Notes under the pieces: model-generated
Seen by the model: the letters and a program-made list of their open reading frames with translations, nothing else
What the model was told of the DNA's origin: nothing
The model's database searches: none
Source of the DNA: Escherichia phage ECO103 4-12-1
DNA length: 64,000 nucleotides
Reading direction: 5' to 3' (one strand)
Sequence record: OR844650
Shown here: positions 23,974-27,870 of the stretch, one piece after another
How the letters are laid out: each line of letters starts with the position of its first letter
Position numbering within the stretch: the first letter of the stretch is position 1
Position numbers and translations under genes: made by a program

Positions 23974-24484
23974 TGTTAATCGCCAATAAGTTAATATACA
24001 AATTACTGTTAAATGCTATCTGCAATTCCATATAGAACTGAATGATAGCATAGTCAGGGTCAGTACACGATAGTTGAAAACACTGTTCGTCAAATGCATT
24101 GTAATTGTACTTAGGGATGTGAATTTCACGCTTCAAATCAGGTTGACCCCACTTCATCGCATACACACCAATGTTATTGTTCTTTTTCCTTTTCTTAAAT
24201 GTTAATTGTTGAATATTTCCAGCGTTGTCTAGGAAAATAGTATTATTCGACACAGGTGCACCAATAGAAAACAATGATGTATCAATTACGTGTGTCTCAC
24301 GCACCTCACACTTCTGGAATGCCCCAGTACCCTGTAATACATAATGAAAATTGTACTTCTCATTAACAACAGTACTAGGATCGATTAAACCAGTACTGCA
24401 TTTTTTGAGTACTGGTACAATGGTGCGAATCTTTTTTGATAAATCTTGTAATGCATCAAAGTCATTGATGTTAACTTTCATCAC
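23948..24484 (-). CDS. family A paralog
   Basis: ORF 178 aa; motif DEQCFQLSCTD. Confidence 0.55.
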   Translation of the reverse strand: MMKVNINDFDALQDLSKKIRTIVPVLKKCSTGLIDPSTVVNEKYNFHYVLQGTGAFQKCEVRETHVIDTSLFSIGAPVSNNTIFLDNAGNIQQLTFKKRKKNNNIGVYAMKWGQPDLKREIHIPKYNYNAFDEQCFQLSCTDPDYAIIQFYMELQIAFNSNLYINLLAINIDEVFKNI

Positions 24485-24930
24485 TCGAATGTAGCCTCTT
24501 CAGTAGTAACAAAATTGGTTAGTGTATCCAGTTCAGCAGTGTCAAGATAAAATACATCTAGTACAGATTTCTGATATATTACACTGAATGTGCATAGATT
24601 GTCAAGTGTTCCTTGTTCATAAACAGTACTACCCTGGAAGTACCCTTCTTCAGTACTCAGGGATAAAATATCTGAAATTTTAAAAGATTCTTCAGTTGCA
24701 TGTCTTTCTATATTAACTATATTGCCGTTTCGGTTCAATGAAATATAATCGTATGCTAACTCAATTAGACTATAATTATCCGCATTAGTGTCAAATAAAG
24801 CGACAATTTTTCGTCTCAATCTCTCATCGTGATCATGGTTTTCATCAGCTAAGTATTCAGGATTTTCTTTGAAGAATTTAACGACGCGTAGAATATCATT
24901 TGCTTTCTTGATTGCACTTTCGTAACTCAT
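24481..24930 (-). CDS. family A paralog
   Basis: ORF 149 aa; motif EEGYFQGSTVY. Confidence 0.6.
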   Translation of the reverse strand: MSYESAIKKANDILRVVKFFKENPEYLADENHDHDERLRRKIVALFDTNADNYSLIELAYDYISLNRNGNIVNIERHATEESFKISDILSLSTEEGYFQGSTVYEQGTLDNLCTFSVIYQKSVLDVFYLDTAELDTLTNFVTTEEATFE

Positions 24931-25235
24931 AATAATTCAACCACTCCATCTCTAAAGTACATATAACTACCACCATTGGATACTGTGAATTCTATTGTCC
25001 CCAATAATATATTATATTTTTTTATTTCACATGTAGTACTTGTAGTGTAAGGCTCACCATCTCCTAAGTACATTGACATATGACATAGAACTTTTCTACC
25101 AGCATATTTCTCTTCAAACGATTGTTCAAAACTATGCATAATTTGATTTAAAGCTGAAATGTAATTAATAAAGTCAGGTATTTCTGTCAATGAATTATAA
25201 ACCGTACAAAGTGAATCAAATTCATTTTTAGTCAT
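24927..25235 (-). CDS. hypothetical protein
   Basis: ORF 102 aa; no FQ motif. Confidence 0.5.
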   Translation of the reverse strand: MTKNEFDSLCTVYNSLTEIPDFINYISALNQIMHSFEQSFEEKYAGRKVLCHMSMYLGDGEPYTTSTTCEIKKYNILLGTIEFTVSNGGSYMYFRDGVVELL

Positions 25236-25549
25236 TATATTTCTATCTCAATGTAATCCTGTGTGATTAAGTAATCCCAATGATACTTCACCTGCTTTTG
25301 TAATTCAATTAACGTAAAGAAGTTGATCGATTTATCCCATACGAGCGATTCCTGGAAAATAAATGATTCATGTTCATCGTAATAATCACACTCTAAAAAA
25401 TCAGGTATATATTCACTATCGTGAATGTATTCAACAAACGAACTAGCTTGGCATTTCTTTACTACTAGTAATAATGAATTATCATGATCAAACAGATACA
25501 ATAAACTAATTTCACCAGGGACGTACTGAACACTGAATAAGTTTTTCAT
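25235..25549 (-). CDS. family A paralog
   Basis: ORF 104 aa; motif ESFIFQESLVW. Confidence 0.6.
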   Translation of the reverse strand: MKNLFSVQYVPGEISLLYLFDHDNSLLLVVKKCQASSFVEYIHDSEYIPDFLECDYYDEHESFIFQESLVWDKSINFFTLIELQKQVKYHWDYLITQDYIEIEI

Positions 25550-25998
25550 TCTATACCTTCTGGATCTTTACGAAGTTCTTCGAAATCCAAATAAAATCGA
25601 GGACAGTTAACACTCTTTAAATACCACATAATAACTAATGCTTCAAGTACTTCATCATCGTAAACAGTACTGTTTTGGAAGTAATACTCTTCACTATCCC
25701 ACGGACCATCCAGTACTTCATAATTCAAAATTAATGGTTTTTTGCGATTAATAAAACGAATGCTACCATTTTCAACATAACTAATAAATTCTGCATCTCT
25801 ATTGTATTCAGAAAACGATATAGGACTATTGGAATTCAACCCAAGAATAACCCTTACACCAACGGAGTTATTATACATTTCATCTTTGTAGTAGTTGCCG
25901 TTCTCGGCTTTGTACACTTCTTTGAACTTTCCTGCCTTTATATCGTCAAAGTATCCATGTAGTTCTTTTGCTTTTTCAAGAGCACTTTGTAATGACAT
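25546..25998 (-). CDS. family A paralog, subfamily A1
   Basis: ORF 150 aa; MSLQSALEKAK N-terminus; motif EEYYFQNSTVY; MWYLK. Confidence 0.65.
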   Translation of the reverse strand: MSLQSALEKAKELHGYFDDIKAGKFKEVYKAENGNYYKDEMYNNSVGVRVILGLNSNSPISFSEYNRDAEFISYVENGSIRFINRKKPLILNYEVLDGPWDSEEYYFQNSTVYDDEVLEALVIMWYLKSVNCPRFYLDFEELRKDPEGIE

Positions 25999-26464
25999 TA
26001 CCTTCTCCTACAGTATTCTCTACATATTCATAATCAAAATAGAAACTACTGGAGTCAATACTTTTGAAATACCACATAATCACAATAACATCCAGTTCTT
26101 CTTCATTGTACAACGTACTATTCTGGAAGTAATACTCTTCACTATCCCACGGACCTTCTAGTACTGAATAAGGAATGATAGTGTCATCAGCATCACTATC
26201 TGTGTTGTAGATGGTAATATCTTCATTACGGCAATAACTAATGTACTGATTGTACATATGATATTCACAGTTATCACTGTCACCAGTATCAGTGTGCAGT
26301 ACTAATGTTTCTGCACATATCTCGGACTCGTCATAATCGTCACGGTCTTTTACAAAAAATTCAGTATCAGATGTTTTATATACACCTGGAACTGAACCTT
26401 CTTGTACCATAATCATATACTCATGAATCTTCTTTGCTTCTTTCAATGCACTTTGTAATGACAT
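25976..26464 (-). CDS. family A paralog, subfamily A1
   Basis: ORF 162 aa; MSLQSALKEAK; motif EEYYFQNSTLY. Confidence 0.65.
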   Translation of the reverse strand: MSLQSALKEAKKIHEYMIMVQEGSVPGVYKTSDTEFFVKDRDDYDESEICAETLVLHTDTGDSDNCEYHMYNQYISYCRNEDITIYNTDSDADDTIIPYSVLEGPWDSEEYYFQNSTLYNEEELDVIVIMWYFKSIDSSSFYFDYEYVENTVGEGNVITKCS

Positions 26465-26907
26465 TACAAATCCCCTGTACTTAAATATTCACATGCTCCC
26501 CAGTCAAGAAAGAATGGTTCAAAATTCAATTCCTTAAAGTACCACAACACAACCAAGGAATCAAGAATTTCTTGGTTAAAAATGAGACTCTGTTGGAAGT
26601 AATACTCTTCAGTACCCCACGGGCCATCAAGTACCCCGAAGTCAACAGGTGTATTTGTTGTGTCAAAAGTAATCTTAGTACCTGGAATATATACAAAAAA
26701 ATTAGTATATTGACTACATGAAGAGTACTGTATAGTATTGTCTTTATCCTGTCCCATAAGTAAAATATCATCAGAGTATGTCTTTATACCTGATAGATAA
26801 TACTCATCACCAAATGCACTTACTTTATCACCATAGACCCCACTTTTTATGTTATCGTGGAAGTGATGTATTCTGTGTGCTAGTTCAAGTGCACTTGCTA
26901 AACTCAT
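26464..26907 (-). CDS. family A paralog, subfamily A1
   Basis: ORF 147 aa; MSLASALELAH; motif EEYYFQQSLIF. Confidence 0.65.
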   Translation of the reverse strand: MSLASALELAHRIHHFHDNIKSGVYGDKVSAFGDEYYLSGIKTYSDDILLMGQDKDNTIQYSSCSQYTNFFVYIPGTKITFDTTNTPVDFGVLDGPWGTEEYYFQQSLIFNQEILDSLVVLWYFKELNFEPFFLDWGACEYLSTGDL

Positions 26908-27374
26908 ATATCCTCTTTAATAACTCGTAGTAGATCCAAGTCCAAATAGAAGCTAGGACAATCTGTATTATTAAAGTACCACAGAATGACAAGCTTGTCA
27001 AGTACATCTTCCTCGTAGATAGTATTCTGCTGGAAGTAGTACTCTTCACTTCCCCAGTCATTATCCAGTACTGAATACGGAAGATGTTTCTCTGCTGCAC
27101 CAGTTATAATGTCAGTATATTGTATTAAAATATCAGCATCACGACAGAAGTACATGTAATTATCTTCCAGATTAACATCACACCCAGTGAGTGTTGTTTC
27201 AGAAGAATCTAAGTTTTCTTCGTACATGTGAATGTACTCACTACTGTCATCGTATATCATTCGACAATAAGCTTTACCTTCCTTGAATAGATACCCATTG
27301 AGACAATTTGCTACAATTTCTTTGCTGCATAAATCAATTAACTTCGCAATCTCTAATGCTCTTTCTAAACTCAT
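26904..27374 (-). CDS. family A paralog, subfamily A1
   Basis: ORF 156 aa; MSLERALEIAK; motif EEYYFQQNTIY. Confidence 0.65.
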   Translation of the reverse strand: MSLERALEIAKLIDLCSKEIVANCLNGYLFKEGKAYCRMIYDDSSEYIHMYEENLDSSETTLTGCDVNLEDNYMYFCRDADILIQYTDIITGAAEKHLPYSVLDNDWGSEEYYFQQNTIYEEDVLDKLVILWYFNNTDCPSFYLDLDLLRVIKEDI

Positions 27375-27375
27375 T

Positions 27376-27870
27376 TCAACCCCTGTTAATACCGTTATCT
27401 ACAGTTTTCTTTACGTATTTGTAATCGAAATAGAAGTTCCCAGAACCAATACTTTTAAAGTACCACATAATTATAATAACATCAAGTACTTCATCATCGT
27501 ATACAGTACTTTGTTGGAAGTAATACTCTTCACTATCCCACGGACCTTCCAGTACTTCACTCGGAATTATAATGTCATCGGAATCGCTGTCAGTACTGTA
27601 TATGGTAATATCTGCATCATTAATATAGACCATGTACTCATTATGCATATCAATGAAACATTCATAATCATTAGGGTCGGTATCTAGTATGCACGTTTCT
27701 GTATCCAGTACACACGTTTCTGTATCTGAGTAGTCATTATTAAGGAGGTTATCCGGTACATAATATTGAGTACTTGTGTCTTTGAAAACACCGTAAACTG
27801 AACCTTCTTTTGCCATATTCATGTACTCATGAATCTTCTTTGCTTTTTCCAATGAACTCTGTAATGTCAT
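27376..27870 (-). CDS. family A paralog, subfamily A1
   Basis: ORF 164 aa; MTLQSSLEKAK; motif EEYYFQQSTVY. Confidence 0.65.
   Translation of the reverse strand: MTLQSSLEKAKKIHEYMNMAKEGSVYGVFKDTSTQYYVPDNLLNNDYSDTETCVLDTETCILDTDPNDYECFIDMHNEYMVYINDADITIYSTDSDSDDIIIPSEVLEGPWDSEEYYFQQSTVYDDEVLDVIIIMWYFKSIGSGNFYFDYKYVKKTVDNGINRG

Follow-up and report, generated by a model that had tools for sequence, protein, structure and literature searches.

How did five consecutive genes of a jumbo phage come to encode proteins that are alike at both ends and different in the middle, and what might such a set of proteins do? The question arises in a 64,000-nucleotide stretch of Escherichia phage ECO103 4-12-1 (sequence record OR844650), referred to in its entirety as the window, in which five adjacent minus-strand genes, designated A to E, occupy positions 25546 to 27870. 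An earlier reading of the bare DNA (the original prediction) had described them as a young subfamily of near-duplicates, formed by recent iterative duplication with diversification of the middle region. We found instead that the five genes are an old tandem paralogue subfamily, in which each copy is conserved and under purifying selection. We give an about even chance to the wider proposal, that these individually maintained paralogues are acidic, non-virion proteins made early in infection, which bind their targets in host interaction or counter-defence.

By its matches, the window is DNA of an Asteriusvirus jumbo coliphage of the PBECO4/121Q group. The region 24400-28300 showed 98.4-98.9% identity to the Asteriusvirus phages vB_EcoM_CRJP21, BF17, phAPEC6, PBECO4 and others, and 94.6% identity to 121Q. 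The matching genes in these relatives are all annotated as "hypothetical protein".

Five paralogues with a divergent centre

The five genes, with the length, isoelectric point (pI) and, for three of them, net charge of their products, are as follows.

25546..25998, minus strand: gene A, 150 amino acids, pI 4.66; 23-nt overlap with the end of B
25976..26464, minus strand: gene B, 162 amino acids, pI 4.05, net charge -26; closest paralogue is E
26464..26907, minus strand: gene C, 147 amino acids, pI 4.25; the most divergent of the five
26904..27374, minus strand: gene D, 156 amino acids, pI 4.08, net charge -21
27376..27870, minus strand: gene E, 164 amino acids, pI 4.05, net charge -23; transcribed first in the cluster; match to phrog_9317 with an expectation value (E-value) of 2e-65

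In an all-against-all BLASTP comparison of the 68 open reading frames (ORFs) of the region, A to E matched one another with E-values of 9e-16 to 9e-62, and all five matched phrog_9317 (E-values of 5e-55 to 9e-66) over profile positions 1 to about 158 of 160. Averaged over all pairs, the N-terminal helix (residues 1-21) was 48% identical, the centre (residues 22-88, rich in gaps) 21% and the C-terminal core (residues 89-138) 55%. At the DNA level, a 145-nt core segment was present in five copies with 65-78% nucleotide identity, and the visible repeat was confined to this core. The segment identities and the 145-nt repeats indicate that the pattern shared by A to E is real and far beyond chance, in agreement with the original prediction that five consecutive genes have an N-terminal helix and an EEYYFQ core in common while their centres differ. 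The motifs quoted at that time are approximate, as D has NDWGSEEYYFQQNT and LWYFNN, and A has MWYLKS.

The term near-duplicates did not survive the comparison. Pairs of the five shared 28-40% amino acid and 46-56% nucleotide identity, and only B and E, the closest pair, were more alike (60% and 72%, respectively). The N-terminal helix is likewise no mark of the subfamily, because about ten other long-form members of the wider family in the window, which we call the FQ superfamily (family A of the original prediction), have it too. When nucleotide identities were derived from pairwise codon-aware alignments (at least 80 aligned codons for the other pairs of the wider family), A to E had higher values, of 49-72% with a mean of 56%, as compared with a mean of 46% for those other pairs, indicating that A to E form a real, relatively closer branch of the family. 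The original prediction would have been refuted had the copies been no more alike than other family pairs, and on this count it stands. A to E are not alone above the family background: the genes at 35308/35886 (65% nucleotide identity) and at 27880/28236/29121 were comparable. Plus-strand ORFs that overlap the cluster (e.g. 25895-26161 and 27283-27687) are antisense shadows of the real genes, and are annotated in no relative examined.

Age of the duplications and selection on each copy

The proportion of synonymous differences (pS) between the paralogues was 0.4-0.97, with nine of the ten pairs saturated and B/E near saturation. Each of the genes A to E, and likewise the neighbouring gene X (described below), formed an orthologue clade of its own, six in all, in a tree of 64 related proteins that was built from the window and ten related genomes. 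Phage 121Q carries all five genes as gp370-374, gp370 being the orthologue of gene E, and separate orthologues of all five were also found in PBECO4, slurp01, UE-S1 and others. From the synonymous saturation, the separate orthologue clades and gp370-374 of 121Q, we conclude that the duplications predate the split of the sampled Asteriusvirus lineages. Moreover, the genomes that are 94.6-98.9% identical over the region all have the same five genes, which argues against recent amplification. The distant phage Turkey5 has a D orthologue (5737-6174) and one B/E-like gene, and the split between B and E is the youngest in the cluster. The account of a duplication with a diversified middle is thus only partly upheld: the copies did arise by tandem duplication and then diverged, chiefly in their central segment, while "recent" and "young" fall with the synonymous saturation and the separate orthologue clades.

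Comparison of the orthologues showed purifying selection, with ratios of nonsynonymous to synonymous divergence (dN/dS) mostly of 0.06-0.5. The values for the individual genes, between orthologues, are as follows.

Gene A: dN/dS about 0.3
Gene B: dN/dS 0.06-0.08, the most constrained copy
Gene C: dN/dS 0.23-0.97
Gene D: dN/dS 0.16-0.70
Gene E: dN/dS 0.11-0.75

Outside the first 21 codons, pS between B and E was 0.53-0.69. In the first 21 codons themselves (26351-26465 as compared with 27757-27871) it was only 0.20, in a small sample; a short gene-conversion tract or a constraint on translation initiation could produce such a low value.

Two rival explanations were weighed against these data. 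One is that of the original prediction, a young subfamily arising by recent iterative duplication, in the manner of a "genomic accordion", with copies still nearly identical. The copies are indeed adjacent, co-oriented and closer to one another than to other members, and B and E can be cited for it with their overall nucleotide identity and the low pS at their 5' ends. Nevertheless, it is contradicted by the saturation of nine pairs and near-saturation of the tenth, by the lack of any long nucleotide repeat over 78% identity, and by the separate orthologues of all five genes in 121Q, PBECO4, slurp01, UE-S1 and others, and we regard it as very improbable. Recent segmental amplification was rejected as a class for the five genes: instead of near-identical copies whose number varies between close isolates, we found 46-72% nucleotide identity and pS of 0.4-0.97. 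The other explanation, that the genes are non-functional or selfish filler, namely drifting, mis-called or decaying duplicated ORFs, draws on their uniform annotation as hypothetical and on a few orthologue pairs with dN/dS of about 0.9. It is scarcely credible in view of reading frames that are intact and of the same length in the related genomes examined (E being shorter in UE-S1 and A4), dN/dS well under 1 in most comparisons, and confident structure predictions.

The content of the array still changes between related phages, by gain, loss and cassette replacement. Gene E is absent from fEgEco12 and its relatives, A4 is without gene A and the two genes after it, and the E orthologues of UE-S1 and A4 are shorter (157 and 160 amino acids, respectively). 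Gene A exists in two allelic forms, about 69% identical, among Asteriusvirus genomes. Synonymous divergence for one and the same genome pair varied several-fold by gene, e.g. from 0.03 to 0.64 in comparison with EC.P1, and this spread indicates a recombination mosaic. The genes next to the cluster include such a cassette.

24481..24930, minus strand: gene X, 149 amino acids; sister subfamily phrog_12674
24927..25235, minus strand: non-family gene of 102 amino acids; variable cassette slot
25235..25549, minus strand: short-form family member of 104 amino acids, situated between A and the next genes; its motif, FIFQESLVWD, was found by motif scan

The slot at 24927-25235 has undergone cassette replacement between close relatives: EC.P1, Ecwhy_1 and fEgEco12 carry there a 147-amino-acid long-form family member (…SEDAYFQYSTIYP…) instead, at L007 2025-2468, L008 2018-2467 and L002 6221-6664 of the relatives' loci. 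Gene X, which had been noted for an N-terminus similar to that of A to E, proved to be a true but more distant relative. It was 23-32% identical to them (BLASTP E-value of 1e-6 to A), and matched phrog_12674 over its full length (E-value of 1.5e-53) with a cross-match to phrog_9317. The short-form gene at 25235-25549 fell below the threshold of the family search, and its orthologues in EC.P1 and fEgEco12 matched the family profile weakly (E-values of about 3e-4). The gene at 30298-30921 is a member of the wider family only; the family profile covers its residues 84-177, and its N-terminal likeness to the five amounts to a few residues.

Predicted fold and distribution of the FQ superfamily

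An iterated hidden Markov model (HMM) profile search of all ORFs of the window, seeded with A to E, converged in five iterations and returned 40 ORFs, among which A to E scored highest (1e-40 to 1e-45).

9641..38906, minus strand: superfamily block with 40 profile-detectable members, all on the minus strand

The number 40 is a lower bound, and a few more motif-bearing ORFs (e.g. 25235-25549) fall under the threshold. In a MAFFT alignment of the 40 proteins, F107 and Q108 were invariant in every member, against a mean column identity of 12%; this pair sits in the motif (S/T)-E-E-x-(Y/F/L)-F-Q-x-S-(T/L). Other sub-clusters were found at 35308/35886 and at 27880/28236/29121/22072, and the five-gene cluster was the largest.

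The AlphaFold2 (AF2) model of gene A had a mean predicted local distance difference test score (pLDDT) of 89.6 and a predicted template modelling score (pTM) of 0.85. It comprises, in order, a helix (3-21), seven short strands (30-91), helices at 93-97, 103-109 (containing EEYYFQ) and 115-129, a strand at 135-138 and a short helix. The model of gene E (pLDDT of 88.7) showed the same fold, with a low-confidence acidic loop at 48-55 instead of a hairpin; this loop contains a DTETCVL/DTETCIL duplication, whose counterpart was found in a repeat search of the DNA.

27677..27718, strand not assigned: 21-nt tandem duplication in gene E, encoding DTETCVL/DTETCIL

These models suggest that the proteins have in common a compact fold, made up of an N-terminal helix, a beta meander of about seven strands, and C-terminal helices carrying the invariant (S/T)EE-x-Y/F-F-Q-x-S motif. 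Between copies the helices are conserved, and the sheet and loop region between them varies. Since EEYYFQ(G/N/Q)S resembles a protease site of the tobacco etch virus (TEV)/3C-like type, this identity was considered and rejected: many different residues follow Q (N, Q, G, E, Y, L, M, K), making this position highly variable, and a confidently predicted helix contains the motif. Fold relatives were sought in PDB and BFVD with Foldseek. Four chains of p32 were among the top 30 rows, and p32/gC1qBP/MAM33 resembles the present proteins in being acidic and in its order of elements, with an N-terminal helix, about seven antiparallel strands and C-terminal helices (as in the structure 1p32). Membership of the p32/MAM33 (gC1qBP) family was rejected, because neither Foldseek nor the PDB profile searches gave a significant structural superposition or profile match.

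The superfamily profile matched 134 clusters (50% identity level) among 1.84 billion representatives at E-values of 1e-3 or below, all of them proteins of 65-204 amino acids, and the subfamily profile matched 61 clusters at the 90% identity level. In ten of the 134 clusters that were sampled, each named member came from an Asteriusvirus-like coliphage or from an "E. coli" contig, of roughly 350 kb, that is such a phage. The BFVD fold relatives with a named source were uncharacterised proteins of 121Q, SP27, Klebsiella phage RaK2, Cronobacter phage GAP32 and Serratia phage BF. A search with a six-member alignment found 14 tandem members within 8 kb of a 345,809-bp IMG/VR contig (L013 1002-8112), with a (T/S)EEGYFQ-type motif; we take this contig to be Klebsiella phage RaK2. 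The expansion is thus, by this narrow distribution, a trait of the RaK2-like jumbo-phage clade, across genera. We also observed, in many assemblies labelled E. coli (O157 among them), contigs of about 345-360 kb with genes for FQ-family phage proteins; complete jumbo-phage genomes are therefore deposited within bacterial isolate assemblies, by carrier state or contamination.

The genes are on record as hypothetical proteins and as function-less PHROGs, and a lineage-specific multigene expansion in a large virus is of a known kind. The matches of A to E to phrog_9317 and of X to phrog_12674 are full-length, and both entries are of "unknown function". PHROG differs from the present grouping in dividing the superfamily into many separate families, so that the relatedness of about 40 genes in one phage goes unrecorded there. 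In the searchable papers on PBECO4, 121Q, phAPEC6, UE-S1, fEgEco12, CBB and jumbo-phage comparative genomics, we found neither the family itself nor its size, motif or fold described, and the FQ protein family itself appears to be new.

Genome setting and possible role of the proteins

Nearly all genes of the window are on the minus strand, and the GC content is 30-35% up to about 44 kb and 38-40% further on. The part from about 44965 to 64000 (45-64 kb) is the counterpart of the annotated 21,525-bp direct terminal repeat of vB_Ec-M-J, and its boundary coincides with the rise in GC content from about 0.33 to 0.38; by this match, the right end of the window therefore lies about 2 kb from the physical genome end. 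The five-gene array is situated about 17-20 kb inward of the direct terminal repeat, among same-strand, tightly packed, overlapping genes that are read inward from the genome end. Starting at that end, one meets first the terminal repeat, next a second family with about 27 small genes, then the FQ family and after it a DNA methyltransferase gene. The second family is itself a tandem array, of about 27 consecutive minus-strand genes for proteins of about 66-104 amino acids (window 38896-44897), with the common C-terminal motif L-G-T-(N/D/Q)-(Y/F/H)-Q-E-x-Y-V and 50-56% identity in the closest pairs. Two look-alikes of it stand inside the FQ block, at 23583-23774 and 23752-23973.

A consensus scan for sigma-70 promoters gave the following sites.

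29655..29682, minus strand: sigma-70-like site TTGACA-16-AAAAAT (10/12), in the gap 29606-29695; from the consensus scan alone
20815..20844, minus strand: perfect sigma-70 consensus with extended -10, TTGACA-18-TG-TATAAT (12/12)
33630-33602, minus strand: sigma-70 site (11/12), directly after the terminator-like hairpin 33668-33647
38190-38162, minus strand: sigma-70 site (11/12)
48192-48278, 48687-48769, 51533-51619 and 51803-51889: example gaps with the stereotyped promoter described below

In the FQ block, genes abut or overlap, and the few intergenic gaps carry sigma-70 consensus sites. The site at 29655..29682 is the closest sigma-70-like site upstream of the gap-free gene run that holds the five-gene cluster, and may serve as its promoter. 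The perfect consensus at 20815..20844 lies in a 59-nt gap before the gene 20305-20781; going downstream from the cluster, this is the next gap between genes. The terminal-repeat region has one small gene per stereotyped TTGACA-N16-TGTATAAT promoter. There, in the intergenic gaps between positions 46.6 and 62.8 kb, a near-consensus promoter, TTGACAAAGTAT(A/C)T(C/T)AGTACTGTATAAT, is repeated ahead of many single small genes, and a second repeated element, TTGACTCCGGTCAGTCCCTTTGCTATTAT, was observed in the larger intergenic gaps.

A to E are the most acidic proteins of the family, with pI of 4.05-4.66 and net charges of -10 to -26. Asp and Glu make up 20-22% of B, D and E, where they are concentrated in the variable centre, as compared with 18% of A and 14% of C; some other FQ-family members are basic (pI 8.2-9.1). 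The virion proteome of phAPEC6, determined by mass spectrometry, comprises 62 proteins (Table 1, PMC7247149). The phAPEC6 orthologues of A to E, gp438c-442c, are not among these 62, and a structural role is contradicted by their absence.

The reading that we favour at even chances combines these observations as follows. Tandem duplication created the array long before the sampled Asteriusvirus lineages split. The proteins may be made early, from promoters of the host RNA polymerase, as the consensus matches suggest, and would work as a set of binders with a constant scaffold and a diversified face. Action by binding is suggested by the models, because the helices form an unchanging scaffold whereas the face made of sheet and loops differs between copies. 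Each copy may be specialised for a different host (or competitor) target, for example a defence or takeover target. Counter-defence or host takeover is a putative purpose; the analogies are with multigene families at the termini of large DNA viruses and with the amplification of accessory genes in phages (PMC9391042).

Several results weigh against this proposal. The best Foldseek match in PDB had an E-value of 0.24, so that no solved fold was matched; profile searches of PDB sequences gave nothing at E-values up to 10; and neither the five genes nor the 40 members had a match over the curated cut-offs of Pfam, NCBIfam or PADLOC. Among orthologues, the centre was marginally more variable than the conserved parts (30% and 23% of sites, respectively; p = 0.05), which does not strongly suggest that the variable face is engaged in an ongoing arms race, and gene B is highly constrained. 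The total of promoter-like sites was no greater than in shuffled controls, so the promoter evidence is suggestive only. No transcriptome was found for Asteriusvirus, and early expression is indicated indirectly, by consensus promoter matches and by the place of the genes just inward of the terminal repeat.

Other roles can be proposed for the same proteins. Conservation in the proteins falls on the helices and variation on the sheet, and F and Q are invariant in all 40 members despite the low column identity, the motif being kept as TEEGYFQ in the members on the 345,809-bp contig. These facts would also suit an adaptor. Through their constant helices and the invariant EE-x-x-FQ, all members would attach to a single partner (for instance a host protease, RNA polymerase or a phage hub protein), and the variable sheet would recruit different substrates, much like the F-box and ankyrin proteins that poxviruses encode. 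However, an invariant aromatic residue and Gln in a short helix can equally be explained as a folding nucleus; we consider an adaptor unlikely. The charge of B, D and E (-21 to -26, mainly from the variable centre), together with the small size of the proteins, their absence from the virion and their place near the early end of the genome, could instead point to DNA mimics of the Ocr/ArdA kind, whose acidic surface would sequester restriction enzymes or other DNA-binding defence enzymes. But PDB searches by sequence and by fold did not match any solved DNA mimic, A and C are far less acidic, basic members exist in the family, and the phage already has DNA methyltransferase genes, so that anti-restriction by mimicry seems quite improbable. 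Immunity-gene banks typically consist of small alpha+beta proteins, diverged from one another and encoded in tandem, and the neighbouring terminal region of fEgEco12 has an annotated "spackle" superinfection-exclusion gene. On these grounds the array might consist of immunity-like proteins against competitor toxins, or of superinfection-exclusion factors, comparable to tandem SUKH/Imm arrays. For the SUKH / SMI1-KNR4 immunity type we found no Pfam SUKH-family match and no fold match to solved SUKH structures, and we think an inter-phage or toxin-immunity array highly improbable.

An extension of the host-interaction proposal, possible but clearly short of an even chance, is that the FQ superfamily is a new fold serving as a general-purpose binder scaffold. 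The phage would then encode dozens of inhibitors with a fixed framework and a variable face, A to E would represent five specificities against host defence or housekeeping proteins, and the role of the invariant EE-x-x-FQ helix would be either to nucleate folding or to bring every member to a common host factor.

Known systems offer partial likenesses to the array. A comparable gene amplification is the "genomic accordion" of poxvirus K3L. Tandem amplification of a counter-defence gene has been observed experimentally for T4 tifA (PMC9391042). Head-to-tail arrays of accessory genes formed by recombination, as in both cases, are a plausible origin for the FQ array. The amplified arrays are recent, near-identical and unstable, whereas A to E are 28-60% identical, synonymously saturated and each conserved as an orthologue. 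Terminal multigene families of large DNA viruses include MGF360/505 of African swine fever virus (ASFV) and the ankyrin and Bcl-2-like families of poxviruses. In Bacillus phage G, a zinc-ribbon family has expanded to about 35 copies (PMC7824862). The FQ family resembles such families in having dozens of highly diverged paralogues toward the genome end, with strain-variable content, that are non-structural and linked to host interaction, a link that for the FQ family is drawn by analogy; it differs in its apparently new fold and in belonging to phages of Enterobacteria. Host-takeover modules in or next to terminal repeats include SPO1 gp37-60 and the T5 pre-early region. The terminal repeat of CBB measures 22.5 kb and contains 51 ORFs (PMC5259590). 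Small genes read inward from the genome end, and strong sigma-70-type promoters in the terminal repeat, are the points of likeness to takeover modules; in contrast, the FQ family lies just inward of the repeat and outside it, sits in long gene runs where promoter-like sites are scarce, and consists of one family of paralogues.

In its narrow sense the finding is a corrective, in that the cluster is an old, stable subfamily with no ongoing amplification. In big eukaryotic DNA viruses, large tandem multigene families close to the genome ends are characteristic of functions in host range and immune evasion. Their phage counterpart has hardly been examined; the one described here numbers at least 40 members and accounts for about half of the genes over 30 kb. 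The fold is confidently predicted and without a solved relative, and the invariant motif provides a handle for mutagenesis. If the proteins do act in counter-defence or takeover, the array would offer a wealth of new inhibitors directed at E. coli proteins, and could help to account for the host range of the Asteriusvirus phages proposed for therapy against avian pathogenic E. coli (APEC), uropathogenic E. coli (UPEC) and O157.

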